The position numbers and the translations under genes were made by a program. 58,404 nt of DNA from an uncultured Candidatus Saccharibacteria bacterium (GTDB lineage Bacteria > Patescibacteriota > Minisyncoccia > Phycocordibacterales > WO2-35-19): positions 1-58,404 of the forward strand of contig CAYXKV010000002.1 in NCBI GenBank assembly GCA_964464975.1. The letters are read 5' to 3'. Shown here piece by piece: positions 4,976 to 54,887 of the stretch (positions within the stretch are counted from its first letter, which is position 1; each line of letters starts with the position of its first letter). Below the pieces are notes generated by a model. That model did no database searches. It saw only the letters and a program-made list of their open reading frames with translations, and was not told the origin of the DNA.

Positions 4976-5461
4976 ATGGCAATAGGAAAAGAAAAGAAAA
5001 AAGAGATAGTCTCTAAACTTAAAGACGTCGTCCATAATTCGAAGTCTGTCGTTTTCCTCAATTTCAAGGGACTTACTGTAGCGGATGCTTCAACATTGCG
5101 AAGAGAGCTCCGCAATAACGGCGTGGGCTACAAGGTGGCCAAAAAGACTCTTTTCAGGAAAGTGCTTGGGGAGTCAAAAATTGATGGCAAAGTGCCAGAG
5201 CTTAAAGGGGAACTCGCAATAGCCTTTGGAGGAGACCCTATGGCTCCATCCAGAAAGATTTACGAATTCCAAAAGAAATTGGAAGGCAAAGTCTCCATCA
5301 TCGGAGGCATATTCGATGGTGCCTATAAAAACATGGAGGAGATGGTCAACATCGCATCCATCCCGTCCATAGAAGTTCTGCGAGGTATGTTTGTGAACAT
5401 CATTAACTCGCCGATACAGAGATTCGCTGTCGCCCTTAACCAGATAGCAAGCAAAAAATAA
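4976..5461 (+). CDS. rplJ: 50S ribosomal protein L10
   Basis: 161 aa with typical L10 N-terminus (KKEIVSKLKDVVHNSKSVVFLNFKGLTVADASTLRRELR). Followed by rplL. Confidence 0.95.
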   Translation: MAIGKEKKKEIVSKLKDVVHNSKSVVFLNFKGLTVADASTLRRELRNNGVGYKVAKKTLFRKVLGESKIDGKVPELKGELAIAFGGDPMAPSRKIYEFQKKLEGKVSIIGGIFDGAYKNMEEMVNIASIPSIEVLRGMFVNIINSPIQRFAVALNQIASKK

Positions 5462-5493
5462 TTTTCAATTTATAATTAAAAATTTAAAAAATT

Positions 5494-5931
5494 ATGTCAG
5501 AAGAAACAACAACAGCCGCTTCCGCTGAAAGCTCCAGTGAGCCAAAGGAAGTAAAAGTACCAACCAAGTTTGCAAAGATTGTCGAAGAAATAGAGAAGAT
5601 GTCGGTGCTCGAACTTCATGAACTCGTCAAAATTTTTGAAGAGAAGTTTGGAGTCAGTGCGAGCGCAGTTGCCATTGGGCCCGCCGTCGCCAGTGGCTCT
5701 GGCGAGGCAAAGGAGGAAAAGTCTGCATTTACGGTTGAGCTCACAGACGGGGGAGCACAAAAGATCGCGGTTATCAAGGTGGTCAAAGAAGTTTTGAGCC
5801 TAGGCCTCAAGGATGCCAAGGACAAAGTTGATGGTGCTCCGGTAGTTCTAGCAGAGAATATGAAGAAAGAAGACGCCGAAAATCTCAAGAAAGCAATTGA
5901 GGAAGCCGGAGGAAAAGTTACACTTAGGTAA
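5494..5931 (+). CDS. rplL: 50S ribosomal protein L7/L12, with an acidic/Ser-rich N-terminal extension of about 25 aa
   Basis: MSVLELHELVKIFEEKFGV dimerisation motif. C-terminal domain KIAVIKVVKEVLSLGLKDAKDKVDGAPVVLAENMKKEDAENLKKAIEEAGGKVTLR. Confidence 0.95.
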   Translation: MSEETTTAASAESSSEPKEVKVPTKFAKIVEEIEKMSVLELHELVKIFEEKFGVSASAVAIGPAVASGSGEAKEEKSAFTVELTDGGAQKIAVIKVVKEVLSLGLKDAKDKVDGAPVVLAENMKKEDAENLKKAIEEAGGKVTLR

Positions 5932-7851: not shown

Positions 7852-8345
7852 CTTTCCCCTCGAGATAGCCCTAGGGTTATCTCGAGGGGGTAGAAAAGCA
7901 GTGACGAATGCAGGATCGTATTTTGACAACAAAATGCCACTACAGCATCGCTTTTTGATGAGTTTTGGGTTTGCTCTTTTGTTAGGGCTTGCTCTAAGCG
8001 AAGTTCCAATTTATTAATTGGGACAAAGTCGAAGGGGTCTTTGTTTGCTGTAAGTGGGGTAGGTAGCTCCATGGAATCCTTGGATAAGCTCGGGATCATG
8101 GGGCAAAATGCCTTATAGACTTTGGTCTCATAAGGCAGGATGAAATAATTCTTGGATTTCCTTTTCTGCCGACAGGCAGTTTGAAGGTAATTCAAGGGCG
8201 TATGGTGGATGCCTTGGCTAGAAATAGCGATGAAGGACGTGGCGTGGCGGCGATACGCTTCGGGGAGGTGCCTAGCAACCTTTGATCCGGAGATGTCCGA
8301 ATGGGGAAACCCTTTGCCTTTGGCAAAACCAGCACTAATTTTTGG

Positions 8346-8571
8346 AAAACAAAAAAGCCGACATTGAGTCGGCTAACATAGAGGTTCAAGTGTTTAGTTT
8401 GGAAGACACCAAACAAAATGTACGGTATACCGGTTTATCTGAATTTGTCCGTTGCACCAAATTTCAGATTCTGACATTCGTAAGGTGCTACTAAACACAC
8501 TTTGCAACTAGTTTGAACCTCTATTTAGAATTGTACCAAGTATGGATGTTTTGTCAAGCGTATTCTTGACT
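8346..8571 (+). other. 226-nt structured insertion at the tip of 23S helix 10
   Basis: Closed by CCAGCACTAATTTTTGG (8329-8345) paired with CCAAAAATTAGTGCTGG (8572-8588). Internal long-range pairs AGAGGTTCAA/TTGAACCTCT and GTGTTTAGT/ACTAAACAC. No ORF. Confidence 0.8.
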
Positions 8572-8684
8572 CCAAAAATTAGTGCTGGAGCGCACCCTGG
8601 GAAGTAAAACATTTCAGTACCAGGAGGAAAATAGACTAATAAGTATTCCGTAAGTAGCGGCGAGCGAAAGCGGAGAAGCCCAAA

Positions 8685-8779
8685 CCCTGTGAGATAACAG
8701 TGTCCGAATTAGTATTTAGTTTAGATTATAGAGATATCTTCTAAATTATTGCCAATTTTGATGATGTTATCTCACGGGG
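8685..8779 (+). other. Expanded 23S hairpin, about 95 nt versus about 20 nt in B. subtilis at the GAGCCCAAACC...GGGGTTGTAGG position
   Basis: GTGAGATAACA (8689-8699) pairs with TGTTATCTCAC (8765-8775). Confidence 0.7.
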
Positions 8780-8986
8780 GGTTGTAAGGCAGAAACTTCG
8801 TATTTATACGAGGAAAGTTACAAAATTATTCGTTAGAAGAAGCTTCTGGAAAGAAGCGCCCCAGAGGGTAATAGCCCCGTAATTGAAAACGAATGATCTT
8901 TCTTGTTTCTGTTCTTGAGTACCTCGAGACACGAATAGCTCGGGGGAATCTGCCGGGACTAACCGGCAAGGCTAAATATATTTCTA

Positions 8987-9026
<40 letters not shown>

Positions 9027-9623
9027 CAGCCCGGTGAGGGCGGTGAAATAGACCTGAAACCATATGTCTACAAGGAGTCAGAGCGGGCGCTTGCGTCCGC
9101 CATGGCGTGCCTATTGAAGAATGAGCCAACGAGTTAATGTATGCGGCCTATTGCCTAAGGAGTAAACCTCCGGAGGCGCAGGGAAACCGAGTCTGAATAG
9201 GGCGCATGTCCCGCCTAGCGGGACTGTCGTATACATTAGACCCGAAGCCAGGTGAGCTTACCATGGGCAGGGTGAAGTCCCGCGAAAGCGGAATGGAGGC
9301 CCGAACCAGTTGGTCGTGCAATTCCTTTGGATGACCTGTGGTAAGGAGTGAAAAGCTAATCGAACCTGGTAATAGCTGGTTCTCTCCGAAAGAGCTTTTG
9401 GGTTCGCGTTATGCGTTCCCTTTGGGGGTAGAGCACTGGAAGGTTCGGACAGGGCGAAAGCTCGCCAAACCTATCAAACTCCGAATACCAAAGGTAAAAG
9501 CATAGCAGTTAGACGGCGGGGGCTAAGCTCCGTTCGTCAAAAGGGAAACAGCCCATGATCTCTATTTAAGGTCCCTAAATCATAGCTAAGTGCACTCAAG
9601 GTGGTGAAATTTCTCCGACAATG

Positions 9624-9666
<43 letters not shown>

Positions 9667-9766
9667 CAGCTCACTCATTCAGAGATTTTGCGCCGAAGAT
9701 AATCGGGGCTAAGCTATGTACCGAAACTGAGGGTTTGTAAGCTTCATCAAGAATTTTGTTATTTGC

Positions 9767-9838
9767 AGGGCGGTCATTTAAGGGTAGGATCCCAACTTTA
9801 TTTGGGAAGTGCGGGTTCGAATCCCGTCCGCCCTGCCA
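9767..9838 (+). ncRNA. tRNA-like element 1: acceptor/T-arm minihelix intact, D-arm and anticodon arm degenerate, CCA encoded
   Basis: Acceptor AGGGCGG (9767-9773) pairs with CCGCCCT (9828-9834). T-arm GCGGG TTCGAAT CCCGT (9811-9827). Discriminator G plus CCA (9835-9838). Putative anticodon stem CCCAA/TTGGG with a 6-nt loop CTTTAT. No D-stem. Confidence 0.6.
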
Positions 9839-9891
9839 TCTCTCACAGATGTAAAAAGTGACTGTTCTTTATAGTTGTTTGTTGTAAGTGC

Positions 9892-9981
9892 GGGGGCGTA
9901 GCTCAGACTGGTTAGAGCGCACGGAGAGGGTCAATCCCAAGGACCGTGAGGCCGCAGGTTCGATTCCTGTCGTCCCCGCCA
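9892..9981 (+). ncRNA. tRNA-like element 2: complete acceptor, D and T arms (tRNA-Ile-like D-arm), 19-nt anticodon loop, CCA encoded
   Basis: Acceptor GGGGGCG (9892-9898) pairs with CGTCCCC (9971-9977). D-arm GCTC AGACTGGTTA GAGC. Stem CACGG (9920-9924)/CCGTG (9944-9948) encloses AGAGGGTCAATCCCAAGGA. Variable loop AGGCC. T-arm GCAGG TTCGATT CCTGT. G plus CCA at 9978-9981. Confidence 0.7.
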
Positions 9982-10883
9982 TCTCACTTTGTGAGACGGC
10001 AAAAAGTTTTAAGCAATTTTTTACTTTAAAAAGTTGCCTTGATGAAGCTTGCAAGCGGTAGGAGAGTATTCCACTCTCCCGACGTTATGTCGGGATTAAG
10101 CTGTGAAGGCAAAGGGGTGACCCATGCTGGAGCGTGTGGAAGTAAGAATGTTGGCACAAGTAACCACAAGGCCGATGAAAAATCGGCCCGCCGAAAGACT
10201 AAGGTTTCCTTCTCAATGTTAATCATGGAAGGGTTAGTCGGGCCTAAGGGGATGGCGAAAGCCGCACCCGATGGACAGCAGGTTAATATTCCTGCACCTG
10301 TTTATATTCGATGGAGTGACGAAGTGCAGTATGCAAAGCGCATTATTGGATTTGACGTCCGTATCGTAAGAATACCGCGTAGGTAAATCCGCGCGGTTCT
10401 GTTAAATCAGAAATTCAAGCGATGCGGCAATCTGGAGCTTCGGCAAAGGAGAGTTTGCAAAGCGCGCTTCCAAGAAAAACTTCTAAGGTTAAGTATAGAC
10501 AGACCGTACCGTAAACCGACACAGGTAGTCAGGGCGAGTAGCCCAAGGCGAACGAGTGAGATGTCCCCAAGGAACTCGGCAAAAAAGCGGCCGTACCTTC
10601 GGTATAAGGCCTACCCGTGATCGCGCAAGCGATTTTACGGGTCGCAGCTAAAGTATCCCTGGCGACTGTTTATCAAAAACACAGCTCCCTGCGAACTCGT
10701 AAGAGGATGTATAGGGGGTGACACCTGACCAATGCCAGAAGGTCAAACAACGGCGGTTCATACCATACCTGTTCTCAAGTTCGGATTTCCGTCGAGGTAA
10801 TCTGAACCTTGAGGCCAGATTGGTGTGAGCTGACTGTTGTAAGCCCTGGTGAATGTCGGCAATAACTATAATTGTCCTAAGGT

Positions 10884-11344
10884 CGAACACATTTTACATA
10901 TATTGTCAAGTGTGCTCGAGGACTGGGACAATTCTAGATTTTGATAAACGTAAATGTAGAAACAGACAGTTAAAATGAGTTTACCAAATTCAGCTGCCTT
11001 GTCGTAAAGTAATTTACGATTAGTCCAAATATGGCTATATGCTGGGAATCCCGAGAGCAATCGAGGGAGATCAGCAGGAAACTTTTGTGTATTGAATAAT
11101 GGTGATGATGTAAGGTGGATGCCGACAAGTTGAGTAGCCGTTCACGGTCAAAGACATTTGCTTGCTTCAAGCTACGGCAAGAGACACATGACAAGTTGCA
11201 TCGTCATCATGGGAGCTGCTTCCAAAACAGCTCCCTTATTATCCAATACATAAAAGGATCCTCAGATACCAAACGCCATCTCCAGCCCTAATTACATAAT
11301 TAGAGTTGGATGAAGATAGAGTACTTCGCAAAAAGGAAGCGAAT
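10884..11344 (+). other. 461-nt ORF-less insertion after the E. coli U1931 equivalent (H69/H71 region): probable intron of unresolved class
   Basis: It splits CCTAAGGT | AGCGAAATTCC. Weak R-like (CAAGAGACACA) and S-like (GAAGATAGAGTAC) group I elements. The inferred 3' end is ...GCGAAT, with no terminal G. Confidence 0.6.
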
Positions 11345-12007
11345 AGCGAAATTCCTTGTCTGGTAAGTTCAGACGCGCACGAATGGTGTAACGACTGGGG
11401 AACTGTCTCGGGGACTCGCTCGGTGAAAATACAATACCGGTGAAGATGCCGGTTACCTGCAGTTAGACGAAAAGACCCCGGAAGCTTTACTGCAACTTGG
11501 CATTGAGGATATGTTTGACCTGCGTAGCATAGGTGGGAGACTTTGAGGTGTTCCTTTCGGGGAGCGCGGAGTCGTCAGTGAAATACCACTCTTGTTTGAC
11601 ATATTTTCTAACCCCGCGCGCAAAACGCGCGAGAGACAGTGTCTGGTGGGCAGTTTTAGTGGGGCGCTATCCTCCTAAAGAGTAACGGAGGAGCCTATTA
11701 AGGTCAGCTAGCCGTGAATGGAAACCATGGCGATAGTGTATAGGCACAAGCTGGCTTAACTGCAAGACGTACGTGTCGCGCAGATGCGAAAGCAGAGCTA
11801 AGTGAACCGATCGTACGCGTTAGACGCGGCGAAAGATTATCGGACAAAAGCTACTCCGGGGATAACAGGCTAGTTCCGCCTAAGCGTCCAGAGCGACGGC
11901 GGAGTTCGGCACCTCGATGTCGGCTCATCTTATCCCGGGGGTGGAGAAGCTCCCAAGGGTTTGGCTGTTCGCCAATTAAAAAGATACGCGAGCTGGGTTC
12001 AGACCGT

Positions 12008-12512
12008 GCAGAAGCTTTTAGCTTGAAGCTTAGAGCTGAGAGGAAAAGCAGTTGCACAATCTGAATCCCTTCGAGAAATTGAAATGATTCTGTTTTAGTT
12101 TTTTCGTTTATGAAATTAAGAAAGTAGAATCCCCACGTCGCTCATTTCATGAGCTATGCGGGGCGAGCAATCAAATCACGGCGGTCCGCCCAAACTTTCT
12201 TACGAAAGAATGTTGGCGGATTAAACTGACTAATATCGGCAAAATCTTTGATTTTGTCCCGAGTGAAATCGAGGGATGAAATTTGAGACAATTCCGAGGG
12301 AAGTTTGTAAATTGTGTGGTGGATGAGTGGAAACCAGAACTCCTACCAGACTCCTGGGGGGTTGAAACTAGGAACAGCTCTTAAACCACCAGCCGACTCT
12401 CCATGGGGGTCGGCTCTACTACACAATTTACAAACACCCGTAGAGACTAAACGTCAGTAATGCGGAAGCAAAAAGCTATAGTCCAATGCACGAAGTAATT
12501 CGTGGTAACATG
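12008..12512 (+). mobile_element. ORF-less group I intron after the E. coli U2593 equivalent (the classic I-CreI-type LSU site)
   Basis: It splits GGGTTCAGACCGT | CGTGAGACAGGTTGG. The 5' exon ends in U and the intron ends in G (12512). R element TAGAGACTAAA (12441-12451) and S element GCTATAGTCC (12475-12484). P7 is GACTA/TAGTC. Confidence 0.85.
12013..12040 (+). repeat. Tandem heptanucleotide repeat (AGCTTAG family), 4 units, at the 5' end of the group I intron
   Basis: AGCTTTT AGCTTGA AGCTTAG AGCTGAG. Confidence 0.75.
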
Positions 12513-12564
12513 CGTGAGACAGGTTGGTCTCCTATCTACTGCAGGCGTTGATTCTTGAGGGGAT

Positions 12565-12595
<31 letters not shown>

Positions 12596-12898
12596 TGACC
12601 TCTGGTGTACCTGCTGTGGCGCCAGCTGCAGCGCAGGGTAGCTAAGTCGGGCAAGGATAACCTCTGAAAGCATCTAAGAGGGAAGCCCGCCCCAAGATTA
12701 GGAATCGATGCTCCGGCGCAAGTCGGGGCGAGAGGATCGTCGGAGATGACGACGTTGATAGGCGCTAGGTGTAAGGCGAGCAATCGTTTGAGCCGAGGCG
12801 TACTAATTTTCCGAAAGCCTTCAGATTGACTGTCGAACGAATTGGAAATTTCAAAAATATTTCATCCTGCCTTTTGGGACCAAAAATCGAGAGATGTG

Positions 12899-13008
12899 TT
12901 TTGGTGCTTTGTCGCGAAGGCCACACCCGTTCTCATTCCGAACACGGAAGTTAAGCTTCGTTGAGGCGATGATACTCTGAAAAGGGGAAAGTAGCTAGGC
13001 GCCAAAAC
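12899..13008 (+). rRNA. rrf: 5S rRNA
   Basis: TTTGGTGC...CCACACCCGTTCTCATTCCGAACACGGAAGTTAAGC...GCGCCAAAAC. Flanked by an extended precursor stem AAAATCGAG.../...CTCGATTTT followed by a T-run. Confidence 0.95.
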
Positions 13009-13103: not shown

Positions 13104-14507
13104 ATGAACGAGTGGGCATCGAGAAGGAAGATGGTTTATCTAGCCGGAGCGGTTTTGGTGCTTGCGACAATTGCCTCATTGATTTTTTTTAAAGTCTGGC
13201 ATGAAGAACCGACATGCAACGATGGTATGATGAACGGTGACGAGAAGGGTATAGATTGCGGGGGATCCTGCACCCTGCTTTGCTCGTCCGCGACGATTGA
13301 GCCCATAGTCAAATGGGGCCCCAGGTATTTTGAAGCTTTGCCAAAAGTTTGGAGCGCTATTGTTTATGTCGAGAATCCCAACGTAGATGCCCGTGCAGTA
13401 TATGCGCCGTACACTTTTACTTTTTACGATGAGCGCGGGACCGTAATAGCAAAGAGGGAAGGGGCGACGGTTCTGCCAAAAGCAAAAACAGTCGGAATTT
13501 TCGAGGGCTCGATTTCTATGGACAATAACTCAAAACCCAAGAGAGCGGTTTTTGAGCTTGGTCAAAGGATGGTGTGGCAAAACGACAGAGGGGAGGAAAG
13601 TCATCTGCGCATTACACACACCCCCATACTAAGCCTCGCAAGCTCTCCTAGGGTAGAAGCCTCTGTCTCAAATACCGGCATCGAGGAGCTCAATAACATT
13701 GAATTGATAGTCTCAATTTTTGACGGCTCTGATAACACTATCGCGGCGTCAAGAACGTTTATCGACAGGCTCAAGCGCAACGAGACTGCCCAAGCATTCT
13801 TCACCTGGCCGAAGCCGTTTGATTTGGGCAAGAAGATTTGTGAAAAGCCGTCAAACATAATGCTTGTGATTGACAGGTCCGGGTCAATGGCATCGCTTGG
13901 AGGCAATCCTCCCGAGCCTCTGAATTCAACCAAAGAGGCTGCATCGTATTTTATTGAACAAGTGGGGTCGAAAGACAGGGTGGGCGTGGTTTCCTTCGCT
14001 ACTTCGGCCAAAGAACCGATCGATGCAGTACTTGCGGCCGATTTCGAATCTGCAAAGAAGGCAGTGGAGTCCATAATGATTGATAAATCCGGCACGCAAT
14101 ATACCAACATTTTCAGTGCCATCAGGTCTTCGTGGGCGGAGCTTGTTTCCCCTAGGGCTCTAGAAGAGGGGGCAAACAAAGTGCTAATCCTTCTCACTGA
14201 CGGTGAGGCCAATAGCCCTAAAAGTCCTAATGGCAAAACCGAAGCTGATGACATAAAGTATGCTGAAAGCCTTGCTTTAAGTGAATCCGAGAGCGCAAAA
14301 AAGGAAGGCATGACCATATACACTATCGGTCTGGGGGACAAAATCAACGATACGTTTTTGAAAAGTGTAGCTTCGGGTGCAGACAAATACTTTTATGCAC
14401 CAAGCGCCGATAGTTTGAAAGATATCTACAGACAGATATCATCTGAAATTTGCGAAGAAGTGCCGGCAAGAATAGAGATTACCCATAAAGTACTCGGGCC
14501 CATATGA
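13104..14507 (+). CDS. Membrane-anchored von Willebrand factor type A (vWA) domain protein
   Basis: N-terminal TM helix. MIDAS motif VIDRSGSM (D-x-S-x-S) with downstream LLTDGEAN. Confidence 0.8.
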   Translation: MNEWASRRKMVYLAGAVLVLATIASLIFFKVWHEEPTCNDGMMNGDEKGIDCGGSCTLLCSSATIEPIVKWGPRYFEALPKVWSAIVYVENPNVDARAVYAPYTFTFYDERGTVIAKREGATVLPKAKTVGIFEGSISMDNNSKPKRAVFELGQRMVWQNDRGEESHLRITHTPILSLASSPRVEASVSNTGIEELNNIELIVSIFDGSDNTIAASRTFIDRLKRNETAQAFFTWPKPFDLGKKICEKPSNIMLVIDRSGSMASLGGNPPEPLNSTKEAASYFIEQVGSKDRVGVVSFATSAKEPIDAVLAADFESAKKAVESIMIDKSGTQYTNIFSAIRSSWAELVSPRALEEGANKVLILLTDGEANSPKSPNGKTEADDIKYAESLALSESESAKKEGMTIYTIGLGDKINDTFLKSVASGADKYFYAPSADSLKDIYRQISSEICEEVPARIEITHKVLGPI

Positions 14508-15643
14508 TGATTAAGCAGATAATCCAAAAGATTTATTTATCAACGGACTGGCTTCTTTTCGGAGCCCTATTTTTTATATCCTTAGCCGGAATTTTGACGA
14601 TGAATTCTTTCACCGGAGAAGACAGTTTTTTTCAAAAACAGATCATATGGCTCCTGATTTCAACAGTTGCTTTTTTTTCTGCAATCCAAATCGATTGGAG
14701 GTTTTTGCGCCGGACTGGGACTATAGTCGGGCTTTATCTTACGACCTGTATTTTGCTTCTTTTCCTTTTCATATACGGTTCAGTATTCAAAGGCGCCCAA
14801 AGCTGGTTTAATTTCGGGGCTTTTGCCTTTCAGCCAGTTGATCTGGGCAAAATTGTCCTTGTTATTCTCTTGTCCAAATATTTTTCTCGAAGGCATATTG
14901 AGATCGCAAACGTAAGGCATATTTTGACGTCTGGTTTTTACACCTTGGTAATTTTCCTCTTAGTCTTTCTCCAGCCGGACTTTGGATCAGCTGTCATAAT
15001 ATTTTTTATTTGGTTGTCAATGGTTCTTTTTACCGGGATTTCAAAAAAGCACTTTTTCGCAGTTTTTTTCACTGGAATAGTAGTGTTTGGGGGACTTTGG
15101 GGCTTTGTTTTCGAGGATTATCAGAAAGATAGAATCAAGTCATTCATTAATCCGCTCACTGACCTTCAAGGTGCTGGATATAATGCCTACCAGTCGATGA
15201 TTGCGGTTGGATCGGGGCAGATATTAGGCAAGGGGGTGGGTTACGGAAGCCAGTCCAAGCTAAAATTTTTACCGGAATACGAGACCGATTTTATATTCGC
15301 GGCTTATGCTGAGGAATGGGGACTTGTCGGTGTGTCAGTCTTATTTTTCCTCTATGGGGTAGTTTTTTATAAAATCATCAATATTGCAAAAAAAGGGGAG
15401 ACAAACTTTGAGATTCTGTACGGGCTCGGTCTTGCCTCGGTGTTTTTTTCTCATTTTGTGATTCACGTGGGCATGAACATAGGACTTCTTCCGGTGACAG
15501 GAATCACAATGCCTTTCATGAGCTACGGCGGGTCCCATATGCTTGCGGAATTTCTGGGGCTTGGAATACTAATGGGCCAAAAAGCGTTTTCAAGGCCAAC
15601 TCACAAGGAGCATGCTAAGAATGAGATAATAGGAGTTGTGTAA
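14504..15643 (+). CDS. SEDS-family peptidoglycan glycosyltransferase (FtsW/RodA/SpoVE)
   Basis: 379 aa, about 10 TM helices. Family motifs FQPVDLGKIVLVILLSKYF, PDFGSAVIIF, ETDFIFAAYAEEWG, TGITMPFMSYGGS. ATGA overlap with the vWA gene. Confidence 0.9.
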   Translation: MMIKQIIQKIYLSTDWLLFGALFFISLAGILTMNSFTGEDSFFQKQIIWLLISTVAFFSAIQIDWRFLRRTGTIVGLYLTTCILLLFLFIYGSVFKGAQSWFNFGAFAFQPVDLGKIVLVILLSKYFSRRHIEIANVRHILTSGFYTLVIFLLVFLQPDFGSAVIIFFIWLSMVLFTGISKKHFFAVFFTGIVVFGGLWGFVFEDYQKDRIKSFINPLTDLQGAGYNAYQSMIAVGSGQILGKGVGYGSQSKLKFLPEYETDFIFAAYAEEWGLVGVSVLFFLYGVVFYKIINIAKKGETNFEILYGLGLASVFFSHFVIHVGMNIGLLPVTGITMPFMSYGGSHMLAEFLGLGILMGQKAFSRPTHKEHAKNEIIGVV

Positions 15644-15747: not shown

Positions 15748-16896
15748 TTAGGCCAATTTATAAATTTTTTCAGTTTCCTCAAGCATTTTTTGGAGTGAGA
15801 AGAAATTAAAAATGGTTTTTTTGATTTCTTCTGCAAACTCCCTGCTCTTGTCAGGATGGTCACATAGATAAAGTATTGCCTCGGCAACCTCCTTGGGGTT
15901 TCTTGGGTGTATTAATATGCCGTTTTGCATGTCCTTTACCACTTCAGGTACTCCTCCGACACTTGTAGCAATTATAGGAATACCGGCGCTTCCGGCTTCC
16001 AAAACTACGTATGGGAAAGCCTCGTTTCTTGATGGCAGGAGGAAAATATCAGAGCCCTTGATGTACCTGCTTGCCTCTTCAACATAACCTAAAAACTTCA
16101 CATTATCGGAAATACCAAGCTCTTTTGCGAGGTTAGAAAGCATTTCATTTTGTTCGCCTGAACCGGCGATAACATAAAGGATTTTCACTCGCATGTTGTG
16201 GGGAAGCATTGCGATTCCTCGCAGGGCGGTATCTATGCCTTTGTTTGGGTTAAGTTCGGAAATGGAAAATATGACAGTGCGGTTTCTCGTCTCTCCAAAC
16301 AAGGAGCGGGACTCGCCTTTTGAGGCGAAATGGGGAGCAGAGATGCCGTTATAAATTACAGAGATCTTCTCTTGAGTGAAAGGCAAAAAGGAGACGCCTT
16401 TTTTGGTTTTTTCGGACACCGCTATTACTTTGTGGCAAAGGAGGATGGTAATCCAGTGGCTTAGGTAATAAAACAATCTGGCAGAAAGGGAGCGGTTTTT
16501 TTCATTAAAGGCCCAATTGTGGGCTGTAAATATTATTTTGGGATTAATATCTGCAGAAAACAGCGATACGAGCCTTCCGGCAAGAGCTCCAATGCCTCCT
16601 ATTTTAGAAGAGTTGAGGTGGATTATGTCAGGTTTCTCGGTCTTTATGATCCTTATAAGTTCTTTGAAAACCGAAAACTCATCCAAAAAACTCACTTCTC
16701 TCGCTAATTTTTCTATTCTGACTGTACGTATACCCTCATCTCTGAGCTTCCCGGGCAGGATCTCGCCTTCACCGCTTGCCACGATGATTTCGAACCTTTC
16801 TTTTGGCAGATTGGTGGCAAGATCATAGACATATCTTTGAGCTCCACCGAAGTTTCCTTTGGTGACGCAGAACAATATTTTCTTTTTTTTATCCAT
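15748..16896 (-). CDS. Glycosyltransferase family 4 (GT-B, group 1)
   Basis: 382 aa. N-terminal GGAQRYVYDLA motif. C-terminal LPSRNEAFPYVVLEAGSAGIPIIATSVGGVPEVV (E-x7-E region). Confidence 0.85.
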   Translation of the reverse strand: MDKKKKILFCVTKGNFGGAQRYVYDLATNLPKERFEIIVASGEGEILPGKLRDEGIRTVRIEKLAREVSFLDEFSVFKELIRIIKTEKPDIIHLNSSKIGGIGALAGRLVSLFSADINPKIIFTAHNWAFNEKNRSLSARLFYYLSHWITILLCHKVIAVSEKTKKGVSFLPFTQEKISVIYNGISAPHFASKGESRSLFGETRNRTVIFSISELNPNKGIDTALRGIAMLPHNMRVKILYVIAGSGEQNEMLSNLAKELGISDNVKFLGYVEEASRYIKGSDIFLLPSRNEAFPYVVLEAGSAGIPIIATSVGGVPEVVKDMQNGILIHPRNPKEVAEAILYLCDHPDKSREFAEEIKKTIFNFFSLQKMLEETEKIYKLA

Positions 16897-16917
16897 AAAA
16901 ATAAATATTTACATAAA

Positions 16918-16946
16918 TTGATATAAATTGCCAGTTATTGTATTAT
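16918..16946 (+). promoter_or_regulatory. Promoter giving a leader of about 2 nt
   Basis: TTGATA (16918-16923), 17-nt spacer, TATTAT (16941-16946). ATG at 16955. Confidence 0.45.
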
Positions 16947-16954
16947 GTTGAGCA

Positions 16955-18310
16955 ATGGCGATTTCAGGGAAAAAGGAGTCCCTTGCCCTCTTTTTGGGGG
17001 ATGTGGCCCTGCTTTATATTTCACTTTGGCTGACGCTTCTGGTCAGATATTTCGATATCCCATCCTCAAATTCCTGGGGGATGCACTTTTGGCCGTTTAC
17101 CATTATTATCGGCGTCTGGCTCCTTGTATTTTTCATTTCCGGCCTTTATGAAAAGCATACACTGTTTTTGAAAAGCAGATTACCGGGCATGGTCCTAAAC
17201 GCCCAGGTGGCAAACAGCTTCATCGCCGTACTCTTCTTCTATTTTATTGCGTATTTCGGTATCGCCCCGAAGACAAATCTTTTCATCTATCTCATTATTT
17301 CCTTCGGCCTGATATTGGTTTGGAGGATATATGGAGACAGGGTATTGTACCCGACTGCCAAGCAGAAGGGAATAATCGTCGGAAGCGGCGAAGAAATGAA
17401 AGAGCTTCTGGAGGAAGTCAACAACAATCCGAAGTATGGACTGGAATTTATATCTTCGATCGACCTCAACAGAATCACTGGTCTGGATTTTCAGGAGGAA
17501 ATTTTATCGAGAGTGTATGCGGAGGAAGTGCAAATCATTGCTATCGATCTAAAAAACGAGAAGGTAGAGCCGATACTGCCTCATTTGTACAATCTCATTT
17601 TTTCAAAAGTAAAGTTTATAGATATGTACAAAATTTATGAGGATATCTTCGATCGCGTACCGCTCTCCCTCGTGCGGTACAATTGGTTTCTAGAAAATAT
17701 TTCGACAGAAAGCAGAGCCACATACGACTTCATGAAGAGAAGTATGGATCTCGTTATTTCCCTTATTTTAGGCCTTATTTCATTGATTTTTTATCCATTA
17801 GTTTACATTCTGATAAAAATGGAGGACAAGGGGCCGACATTTTTTGTTCAGGAAAGAATCGGCAAAAGCAACAAAATAATTAAAATCAGAAAATTCAGGA
17901 GCATGGCGAACTTTACAGACTCAGACCAAAACGGCAACGGAAACAATGGCGGCAAAATTACAAAAGTCGGCAGATGGCTCAGGAAGTTTCGAATTGACGA
18001 ACTGCCTCAGCTTTGGAATGTTATAGAAGGCGAGATGTCGCTTATCGGTCCCAGACCGGAGATTCCTTCACTTGTGAGGCACTACGAATCGGAAATTCCG
18101 TATTACAATGTGAGACACTTGATTAAACCGGGACTCTCCGGCTGGGCTCAGCTGTATCATTTCGATCCTCCTAAGGTCAATGCAGATGCTGAGAAGACTA
18201 GGCGCAAGCTCTCATATGACCTTTATTACATCAAAAACCGTTCTTTAATGCTTGACCTCAAAATAGCTCTAAAGACCATAAAAGCTCTTTTGTCTAGAAG
18301 CGGAGTTTGA
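16955..18310 (+). CDS. Polyprenyl-phosphate glycosyl-1-phosphate transferase (bacterial sugar transferase, WbaP/EpsB-like priming enzyme)
   Basis: 451 aa with N-terminal TM helices. C-terminal motifs KRSMDLVISL...GPTFFVQERIGK...KFRSM...DELPQLWNVIEGEMSLIGPRPE. Confidence 0.85.
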   Translation: MAISGKKESLALFLGDVALLYISLWLTLLVRYFDIPSSNSWGMHFWPFTIIIGVWLLVFFISGLYEKHTLFLKSRLPGMVLNAQVANSFIAVLFFYFIAYFGIAPKTNLFIYLIISFGLILVWRIYGDRVLYPTAKQKGIIVGSGEEMKELLEEVNNNPKYGLEFISSIDLNRITGLDFQEEILSRVYAEEVQIIAIDLKNEKVEPILPHLYNLIFSKVKFIDMYKIYEDIFDRVPLSLVRYNWFLENISTESRATYDFMKRSMDLVISLILGLISLIFYPLVYILIKMEDKGPTFFVQERIGKSNKIIKIRKFRSMANFTDSDQNGNGNNGGKITKVGRWLRKFRIDELPQLWNVIEGEMSLIGPRPEIPSLVRHYESEIPYYNVRHLIKPGLSGWAQLYHFDPPKVNADAEKTRRKLSYDLYYIKNRSLMLDLKIALKTIKALLSRSGV

Positions 18311-50868: not shown

Positions 50869-51420
50869 ATGGTCAGAATGAGTAGGTATTTTGTGGGGCA
50901 TAAAGTCGGGGGAGAGACTGCGAGTGATTTTTATTTGAAAGTTACTAAGGAACTTGCAGATAAGTTTGGTATAACAAACCTCGGTGAAAGAGTGGCGCCT
51001 CACTTGACCCTAAAGCCACCATTTGAGATTCAAAATCTTGGGGCAATTGAAAAAGAAATTGAAAAAATTGCCAAAAGGGCAAAACCTCTCTCCTTTACTC
51101 TTGGAGGATTGGGTGTTTTTGAAGGAAGGGACGGGGCGACGGTATTTTGGAAGGTGCATGGAAATTGGGAATTCAAAAAGCAGATACAACAGATTGCTGA
51201 TGACCTCGCTATTTTTGGAGAAAACGGAAGCAGCCTCCCGAGACCTATCAAGGCCCACCTTTCACTCGCAAGGTATGTTAAAGGAGGAGATCTGAAGGCG
51301 GTTTTGGATTTTCTGGAAAATCGGGAAGTGCCTTGGGTTGATGCAGAGTTTAACAACCTCTCGATTTTTGAATTTATTCCCGGCGGCTGGCAAACCTATA
51401 AATCTTTTGGAATAAAATAA
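50869..51420 (+). CDS. 2H phosphoesterase superfamily protein (LigT / 2'-5' RNA ligase / cyclic phosphodiesterase-like)
   Basis: 183 aa with two H-x-T/S-x motifs (PHLTLKPP and AHLSLARY). Confidence 0.75.
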   Translation: MVRMSRYFVGHKVGGETASDFYLKVTKELADKFGITNLGERVAPHLTLKPPFEIQNLGAIEKEIEKIAKRAKPLSFTLGGLGVFEGRDGATVFWKVHGNWEFKKQIQQIADDLAIFGENGSSLPRPIKAHLSLARYVKGGDLKAVLDFLENREVPWVDAEFNNLSIFEFIPGGWQTYKSFGIK

Positions 51421-53597: not shown

Positions 53598-54887
53598 GTG
53601 CCAATAAACAAATCACCAAGCGTGCTGATGTTCGGATGGGAATTTCCGCCTTTCAACAGTGGGGGGCTTGGTGTCGCCTGCGAGGGGATGAGCAAGGCGC
53701 TCTCTGCAAGCGGTGTGGATCTTACCTTCGTGCTCCCAGTTAAAATGCCAGTTTCCGCACCGTGGTGTCGTTTTGTTTTTGCAAATGACAAGGATCAGAT
53801 TTCAGATGAGGCGGTGATAAGGAGTCTTTTTGCAGGATACCAGAGTCATGTTGATGAAAAGATTGCAATGAGGGGAGTGCTGTCAGGCAATATCTCAGGA
53901 AGCTTATTACAGAGAGTCAGGGCATACGCGATGATCGCACCTTCAATTGCTCGCAAGGTAAGCCACTCAATCATCCACGTACATGACTGGCTGACTTATC
54001 CTGCAGGTATTGCGGCTAAAAGAGCTTCAGGGAGGCCGTTGGTGGCTCACATTCATGCCACGGAGTTTGACCGAAGCGGCAGCGACAGCGTAAACAGCGA
54101 AATTTATGAAATAGAAAGAGAAGGCTTCAGCAAGGCAGATGTCGTGGTCGCGGTCTCTCGGCGCACAGGGCAGAAAGTTATAGACAAGTACGGCATTGAT
54201 CCGCGCAAAGTGAAGGTTGTTTATAATGGTGTGGAGTTCAAAAACAGCGGAAGCACAATTGAAGAAGGCCTCAAAAAAATCAAAGAAGCGGGCAATTCCA
54301 TTGTCCTTTTCGTTGGCAGGATCACCCTGCAGAAAGGTCCGGATTATTTTGTAGCTATGGCTAAAAAGGTTTTGGAGGAACGCCCGAACACTTACTTCGT
54401 CATCTCCGGAAGCGGAGACATGGAGCAGCAGATGATAAGGAGCGTCTCCGAAAAGGGTATCGCGTCACGATTTATTTTTTGTGGTTTTTTGCGTGGAGAT
54501 GAATTGGAAAAAGTTTACAAGGCAGCTGACATCTTCGTGATGCCCTCAGTCTCGGAACCCTTCGGGCTAGTGCCTGTCGAGGCAATGATTTCTGAAGTGC
54601 CGGTCTTAGTATCAAAAGAATCTGGAGTGAGTGAAATTTTGTCCGCGGCACTCAAGTCGCATTTTTGGGATATTGATGACATAGCAGACAAAGTGATAAG
54701 CGTTCTTGATCACAAGCCTCTAAAAAATCATCTTTCGAGAAATGGCTGCGATGAAGCCAAGACAATCCACTGGAAAAAAGCGGCAGATTCTTTGATTTCA
54801 GTATATAATTCTTTAGACAATGCCTTCGGTGTGTTTTTATTTCCAAGTACATCAGCCCATGCGGGTGCGCAAGTACCGGGTTTTTGA
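53598..54887 (+). CDS. Glycogen/alpha-glucan synthase-like glycosyltransferase (GT-B, GT4/GT5)
   Basis: 429 aa. N-terminal FGWEFPPFNSGGLGVAC (K-x-GGL-like). PSVSEPFGLVPVEAM. Its 3' end overlaps the next gene by 68 nt. Confidence 0.8.
   Translation: MPINKSPSVLMFGWEFPPFNSGGLGVACEGMSKALSASGVDLTFVLPVKMPVSAPWCRFVFANDKDQISDEAVIRSLFAGYQSHVDEKIAMRGVLSGNISGSLLQRVRAYAMIAPSIARKVSHSIIHVHDWLTYPAGIAAKRASGRPLVAHIHATEFDRSGSDSVNSEIYEIEREGFSKADVVVAVSRRTGQKVIDKYGIDPRKVKVVYNGVEFKNSGSTIEEGLKKIKEAGNSIVLFVGRITLQKGPDYFVAMAKKVLEERPNTYFVISGSGDMEQQMIRSVSEKGIASRFIFCGFLRGDELEKVYKAADIFVMPSVSEPFGLVPVEAMISEVPVLVSKESGVSEILSAALKSHFWDIDDIADKVISVLDHKPLKNHLSRNGCDEAKTIHWKKAADSLISVYNSLDNAFGVFLFPSTSAHAGAQVPGF

Follow-up and report, generated by a model that had tools for sequence, protein, structure and literature searches.

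A helix 45 intervening sequence with tandem tRNA-like units in the 23S rRNA gene of an uncultured Candidatus Saccharibacteria bacterium

Transfer RNAs embedded in longer transcripts can mark sites of processing: in the spacers of rRNA operons and in mitochondrial precursors, cuts by RNase P and RNase Z at the embedded tRNAs separate the flanking RNAs. In bacterial 23S rRNA genes, intervening sequences (IVSs) at helix 45 are excised by RNase III, which leaves a fragmented 23S rRNA (PMC4990558). Here we describe a locus that resembles both systems, in the 23S rRNA gene of an uncultured Candidatus Saccharibacteria bacterium. The gene lies in a stretch of 58,404 nt (contig CAYXKV010000002.1, positions 1 to 58,404) that we refer to as the window; coordinates without a locus number are those of the window, features of the element are on the forward strand, and L-numbers denote fetched loci of relatives. 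The element adds 318 nt to the tip of helix 45; a long complementary stem closes it, and two tRNA-like units lie in its interior. Because its site, closing stem and sporadic distribution match those of helix 45 IVSs, it belongs to this class, with excision as its presumed fate. The units are true tRNA-like folds under structural constraint, without a decoding loop.

With the helix 45 IVSs of Salmonella, Coxiella and Leptospira the element shares the position at the helix tip, the terminal inverted repeats, the sporadic occurrence and the expectation of a 23S rRNA split into 5' and 3' pieces (PMC4990558). Those IVSs, however, form simple hairpins or encode S23p in an open reading frame (ORF), whereas the present element has no ORF and contains tandem tRNA-like folds conserved by covariation. 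Spacer tRNAs and mitochondrial punctuation likewise place tRNA folds within an rRNA precursor, but they involve decoding tRNAs between rRNA genes, whereas the folds described here are non-decoding and lie inside the 23S gene. Non-decoding tRNA mimics within longer, non-tRNA transcripts are found in the pre-5S leader of Haloferax volcanii, in plant mitochondrial t-elements and in the mascRNA of MALAT1. The Haloferax case likewise concerns an rRNA end, as the 5' end of 5S rRNA is matured by tRNase Z at a tRNA-like structure in the summary given by PMC3296008 (citing Holzle 2008), and the MALAT1 case likewise has pairing between leader and trailer (PMC8457004). In these three systems cleavage has been demonstrated, whereas here it is predicted; none of them is bacterial, lies in a 23S helix or is arranged in tandem.

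The 23S gene resembles those of other bacteria of the Candidate Phyla Radiation (CPR) in carrying several insertions, and short non-intron insertions at known IVS sites have been noted there (PMC11270868, PMC9297842). The classes distinguished in the CPR surveys are group I and II introns, carriers of homing endonucleases and uncharacterised insertions; tRNA-like content is not among them. A 2024 survey of CPR rRNA insertions leaves many ORF-less, non-intron insertions uncharacterised, and the word tRNA is absent from its main text. Full-text literature searches yielded no account of a bacterial IVS with tRNA-like content, in agreement with the original prediction, made from the sequence, which knew of none.

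Site, closing stem and distribution of the insertion

An Rfam search of the window places the bacterial large-subunit rRNA gene at 8180-12827 and the 5S rRNA, of only 108 nt, at 12900-13007. In a BLASTN comparison with E. coli rrlH the alignment breaks at E. coli position 1163 and restarts at 1230, and in the homologues the insertion falls in the loop of helix 45, the hairpin at positions 1203-1226 of the Rfam model. The proposed helix 45 site and the 318-nt insertion are both borne out by these searches, and the base of the helix is intact. The conserved 5' flank that forms this base (ACCGAAACTGAGG, 9720-9732) reaches to the end of the BLASTN alignment at E. coli 1163 and is common to all relatives, while the conserved 3' flank (GGTAGGAGAG, 10057-10066) is defined by BLASTN and by the alignments of the relatives.

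The closing stem consists of a 5' arm at 9733-9751 and a 3' arm at 10038-10056. Its 17-nt inverted repeat (I1, 9735-9751/10038-10054) is 94% complementary, and RNAfold lengthens the stem to 19 bp in the minimum free energy (MFE) fold; the 16 bp claimed earlier for 9736-9751/10038-10053 are present. The MFE of the whole element is −129 kcal/mol, with z = −5.7 against shuffled controls. Across six lineages, the stem aligns over 21 pairs that are 99.2% paired and nine of which have changed on both sides, and the 3' arm is defined by inverted repeat, fold and covariation. Amid these covarying pairs, a 5-bp core of UUCAU/AUGAA (TTCAT in the 5' arm and ATGAA in the 3' arm; 9749-9753/10040-10044, columns 17-21/42-46 of alignment A1) is invariant in all six lineages, which suggests sequence-specific recognition by a nuclease or other protein. 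A terminal hairpin at 10013-10037 (inverted repeat I3) abuts the 3' arm and has equivalents at the same place in L262, L258, L256 and L263.

No promoter-like or terminator-like site was found inside the spacer, which led us to reject a split gene and points to precursor transcription being continuous across it. Since covariance models of intron families gave no match in 9700-10100 at E ≤ 1, the element is not a group I or II intron. Nor does it encode a protein of the S23p type: the longest ORF of the spacer has 61 aa, and a six-frame query against 5.8 billion proteins returned no matches.

Excision itself is a prediction, and helix 45 tolerates extensions; the insertion might thus be an expansion segment that is not removed, with its tRNA-like folds exposed on the outside of the mature large subunit. 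Against this, a long, near-perfect closing stem is a typical substrate of RNase III (PMC4990558) and short non-intron insertions at known IVS sites of CPR bacteria have been read as cleaved by this enzyme (PMC11270868). From the comparison of genes with transcripts, most rRNA insertions in CPR bacteria are moreover predicted to be removed, according to the passage of PMC9297842 that cites Brown 2015. We therefore consider retention in the mature subunit quite improbable.

Relatives were reached via a spurious ORF called over 10039-10386, whose hundreds of homologues are ORFs over other 23S genes, one of them in a Candidatus Yanofskybacteria genome; the contigs of these homologues gave the helix 45 region. 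In the three closest groups, with 23S flanks 89-98% identical to the window, helix 45 ends in a 24-nt hairpin (L131/L132), a 34-nt hairpin (L133/L134) or a plain AT-rich hairpin spacer of about 125 nt (L135). At a flank identity of 78-88%, L256, L258/L257, L261, L262, L263 and L265/L266 have spacers of about 190-560 nt, and the closing stem of these spacers is homologous to that of the window; three of these lineages (L263, L265/L266 and L262) carry one to three tRNA-like units inside the spacer. The assemblies of the lineages with a homologous spacer are separate ones, from JGI, ENA and Logan. The ENA scaffold L260, in which two 23S variants are joined across a run of N within the first 900 positions (1-900), one with a short helix 45 and one with a spacer of the L261 type, was left out of the evidence as a likely scaffolding chimera.

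We also scanned 185,579 GTDB species-representative genomes for a 23S flank followed by a T-arm 60-90 nt later. This gave six matches, all beside ordinary tRNAs or YrlA RNA and none in a 23S gene, with a strict pattern and with many metagenome-assembled genomes without rRNA genes in the set. One of these chance matches is a YrlA (Y RNA-like) gene at L007 1965-2069, the tRNA-like domain of which fitted the T-arm part of the pattern. A metagenome scan with the 3' consensus common to the units was uninformative: the matches listed, at least 120, were ordinary genes for tRNA-Gln, tRNA-Trp and tRNA-Asn with TCTC behind them.

tRNA-like units without an intact decoding structure

Unit 1 (9767-9838) matches the Rfam tRNA family RF00005 at 9767-9835 with 39.2 bits (E = 5.8e-7), and unit 2 (9892-9981) at 9892-9978 with 51.6 bits (E = 2.3e-10). 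Both scores, which had been proposed as a check, lie above the gathering threshold of 29 bits; the E-values are from a search of 401 nt. Unit 1 is preceded by a U-rich leader (9752-9766) that ends in TGC and whose bases −1 and −2 pair with G73 and C74, so that the GC foreseen as an extension of the acceptor stem can indeed form it. The unit has the acceptor AGGGCGG/CCGCCCT, a D-arm loop with GG, the T-arm GCGGG-TTCGAAT-CCCGT and a G73-CCA end, over which a small hairpin (CATCT-CTCAC-AGATG, 9837-9851) forms in MFE folds. A spacer and the leader of unit 2 follow (9852-9891), again ending in TGC and with the motif CTGTTCTTT at 9862-9870. Unit 2 has the acceptor GGGGGCG/CGTCCCC, a canonical D-arm, the T-arm GCAGG-TTCGATT-CCTGT and a G73-CCA end that is included in a hairpin (GCCATCTCAC-TTT-GTGAGACGGC, 9978-10000, inverted repeat I4). 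The two units therefore share the layout that had been predicted for them, each with 7 of 7 acceptor pairs, 5 of 5 T-stem pairs, a G73-CCA end and a TCTC trailer at the expected positions.

As the original prediction had noted, neither unit has a canonical 7-nt anticodon loop. The anticodon-type arm of unit 1, CCCAA/TTGGG, closes a 6-nt loop (CTTTAT), and the arm of unit 2, CACGG/CCGTG, carries a 19-nt stem extension (9925-9943) instead of the loop. ARAGORN, proposed earlier as a further check, calls unit 1 'tRNA-???' with a two-base anticodon (6-nt loop) and does not report unit 2. Thus, the units have a cloverleaf above the Rfam threshold but no 7-nt anticodon loop with U33 and no readable anticodon, and because of the latter the element is not a tRNA gene. 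A canonical anticodon loop hidden by an intron within the 19-nt insert of unit 2 was rejected by inspection, since it needs a poor alternative stem. Comparison with 769 ordinary tRNAs gave no clear answer on the ancestral isotype and supported neither a tRNA-Gln origin of unit 1 nor a tRNA-Ile origin of unit 2, both of which we considered; the D-arm of unit 2, previously described as tRNA-Ile-like, is not specific, with Val, Met, His, Pro and Ile tRNAs alike among the best matches. Since no isotype could be assigned, the alternative origin of the units, as Ile/Ala spacer tRNAs moved into the 23S gene, is a conjecture.

The spacers of three relatives contain further units. In L263 there are three, all with an NCCA end and with Rfam tRNA scores of 29.5 (unit B) and 22.2 bits; unit A keeps a 7-nt anticodon loop and has an insert of roughly 70 nt in the D-loop, and in unit C an insert of about 30 nt replaces the anticodon loop. 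L265/L266 has two units above the Rfam threshold, with 64.2 and 36.1 bits, the first of which has a 6-nt loop in L265 (CTTTTG) that resembles the CTTTAT of unit 1 in the window. The single unit of L262 has a 177-nt insert between its intact halves, at the place of the extension in unit 2 of the window, and is missed by standard tools; its acceptor is paired at 7 of 7 positions, with exactly two bases between its 5' strand and the D-arm and with its 3' strand adjoining the T-arm. Two further structures were seen, in L265 and L256. At about 640-810 of L265, a CTGTTCTTT leader precedes a possible third, degenerate unit, which is closed by a long-range stem (GGGTGGTG/CACCACCC) and has a tetraloop hairpin where the T-arm would be, and at 715-748 of L256 there is a minihelix-like hairpin with the loop CTGGAAT.

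The Rfam scores above the tRNA threshold could suggest functional, decoding tRNA genes inside an rRNA gene, or a chimera in which tRNA genes and 23S sequence were joined during assembly, a possibility raised already by the original prediction. The data contradict both: loops of 6 and 19 nt, with no anticodon assigned by ARAGORN, are not those of decoding tRNAs, a complementary stem bounds the insertion, and homologous insertions are present in independent assemblies of other samples. We see hardly any room for this explanation.

In the eight units of the window and its relatives, 55 of 56 acceptor pairs and all 40 T-stem pairs are formed. U8, the GG of the D-loop and a TTCRANN T-loop are present in every unit and the NCCA end in six, and unconstrained folding yields a four-way junction in all eight. 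None has an intact decoding structure, as seven are without a canonical anticodon loop and the remaining one, unit A of L263, has the insert in its D-loop. A gap-free alignment of the eight units, composed of leader bases −2 and −1, acceptor, T-arm, acceptor and positions 73-74, comprises 14 pairs; 97.3% of its cells are paired, and 13 of the 14 pairs have changed on both sides, whereas none of 500 shuffles and no slid control comes close. Covariation in homologues, proposed earlier as a check on the fold, is therefore clearly positive. Several units were located through their paired T and acceptor stems (12 inner pairs), and the percentage paired of these 12 is for this reason partly due to ascertainment, which affects neither the compensatory changes nor the outer two pairs.

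These outer pairs, between leader and positions 73 and 74, were not used in locating the units. Both form in seven of the eight, compared to 9.8% of 672 ordinary tRNAs from the fetched loci, and both covary: the −1:73 pair is C-G, U-A or G-U and the −2:74 pair G-C, once A-U, while base −3 is never paired with base 75. In folds, six of the eight units have a hairpin just after the CCA end or overlapping with it, and the one at unit 2 of the window is matched in unit C of L263 (ACCACCTCAC-CTT-GTGAGGTGGT) with compensatory changes. Common to the spacers between units is (C)TGTTCTTT with a U-rich stretch after it, and the leader motif CTGTTCTTT recurs in those of L263 (two copies) and L265. Leader pairing, CCA hairpin and motif together define a repeating unit in which a U-rich leader precedes a tRNA-like fold, the acceptor helix of which has 9 bp, and a CCA hairpin follows it.

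These observations bear on a neutral origin, in which ordinary tRNA genes landed in a spacer excised by RNase III and are now decaying pseudogenes that retain a shape without a role. The patchy distribution, with closest relatives that lack the element, is what one would expect of such passengers, as are the degenerate units of L256 and L258 and the disruption of units by inserts of very different length; the closing stem would suffice for RNase III, and other insertions of the gene have no tRNA-like content. Decay, however, should hit stems as often as loops, yet nearly all acceptor and T-stem pairs are intact and compensated, and it is the anticodon loop that is lost or non-canonical in seven of eight units, with the eighth disrupted in its D-loop. 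Further, leader pairing, CCA hairpin and leader motif have been kept across lineages with no more than 81-88% identity in their 23S flanks. We regard neutral passengers as unlikely, though still to be reckoned with.

A possible role in rRNA processing

The explanation we favour, to which we give about an even chance, is that the elements form a family of lineage-specific helix 45 IVSs whose tandem tRNA-derived units serve as processing signals. Selection would then have retained those features of a tRNA that its processing enzymes recognise, namely the 12-bp helix of acceptor and T-arm, U8, the elbow of D-loop GG and T-loop, and usually the NCCA end. Transcription of the 23S precursor would run straight through the element, and RNase III would cut the closing stem of about 19 bp as in other helix 45 IVSs, with the two 23S pieces staying together in the ribosome. 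Further cuts in the spacer could be made at the units, by RNase P on their 5' side or close to it and by the machinery that matures tRNA 3' ends, which would provide either a second, RNase III-independent separation of the 23S halves or a means of dismantling the excised spacer. All of these cleavages, by RNase III, RNase P and RNase Z, are predictions from the structures and from the described systems.

Several observations weigh against this explanation. The 5' domain of the same 23S gene has two further insertions of hairpin type (8329-8590 and 8685-8782, near E. coli 130-178 and 277-291), with near-perfect closing stems of 18 and 15 bp and no T-arm or tRNA-like motif; they are probably ordinary IVSs, and together with the element's own 19-bp stem they imply that RNase III alone could excise the element. 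The closest relatives (L131-L135) are without the element, the patchy and sporadic distribution of which indicates that it is dispensable, and the units of L256 and L258 are degenerate, with no Rfam tRNA match at E ≤ 10. Bacterial RNase P normally contacts a free RCCA end. Leader pairing and CCA hairpin are atypical for good substrates of this enzyme, since the pairing of positions 73 and 74 with the leader, or a trailer hairpin, hides this end, with slower cleavage or a displaced cut as possible outcomes. Finally, no RNase genes were found in the 58-kb window. It is the plain-stem insertions, the element-free closest relatives and the hidden RCCA end, all of which argue against a strict need for the units, that keep our estimate for processing signals near the middle.

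The more specific proposal, that RNase P and the machinery for tRNA 3' ends are recruited by the conserved, non-decoding mimics in order to split the 23S rRNA or clear the spacer, and that the mimics are perhaps also released as abundant CCA-ended small RNAs with their own function, is a tentative one to which we would give somewhat less than an even chance. Release could also be the whole purpose of the units, if the spacer were a vehicle for high expression and they were its cargo, i.e. stable CCA-ended, non-decoding small RNAs acting in trans, for instance as decoys or regulators for tRNA-binding proteins. The conservation of elbow, U8, T-loop and NCCA end would suit such RNAs, the hairpin beside the CCA end could shield it from exonucleases, co-transcription with rRNA would presumably guarantee their abundance, and the release of a tRNA-like RNA has a precedent in MALAT1 mascRNA (PMC8457004). 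The acceptor-stem sequences and discriminator bases, however, differ completely between counterpart units, so that there is no conserved identity element for a specific partner, and the closest relatives do without the element; a function as cargo alone is therefore doubtful and has in our view a rather small chance of being correct. Processing signals within a helix 45 IVS remain our preferred reading.

Surroundings of the locus and implications

Downstream of helix 45, the 23S gene contains two further insertions, at 10883-11344 (about 460 nt) and 12007-12513 (about 505 nt), which lie at E. coli 1931 and 2593/2594, classic sites of group I introns. They have no ORF and no match to an Rfam intron family at the gathering threshold. 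The 23S genes of L257 and L258 carry LAGLIDADG ORFs. The 23S-5S pair has rplJ-rplL (4976-5931) on one side and a VWA-FtsW pair (13104-15643) on the other, and the order L10-L12-x-23S-5S-x-FtsW is also found in L257 and L259. Neither a 16S rRNA gene nor ordinary tRNA genes were found in the 58-kb window. Short 5S rRNAs of 105-110 nt have been reported mainly from Parcubacteria (PMC9297842). In combination, the length of the 5S rRNA, the recurring gene order and the homologous ORF of Candidatus Yanofskybacteria suggest that the host is a CPR bacterium of a Parcubacteria-like kind.

Elsewhere in the window, an ORF of the 2'-5' RNA ligase/LigT 2H-phosphoesterase family (50869-51420) lies beside secA; it is of an RNA-end-healing type, with no established link to the spacer. 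Genes for glycosyltransferases, FkbM methyltransferases, radical-SAM/SPASM proteins, flippases and Wzy-type proteins form a main cluster at 26141-47521 with outliers at 15748-18310 and 53598-54887, and these stretches look like surface polysaccharide loci.

For annotation, the units mean that tRNA finders will call odd tRNAs or pseudogenes within rRNA genes. For the biology of these bacteria, a family of spacers with tRNA mimics offers a testable hypothesis, in which tRNA-processing enzymes take part in the fragmentation of bacterial rRNA or in the clearance of its spacers. If this is true, the principle of tRNA punctuation, as seen in mitochondria, plant t-elements, mascRNA and the archaeal 5S leader, would extend into the interior of bacterial 23S rRNA.

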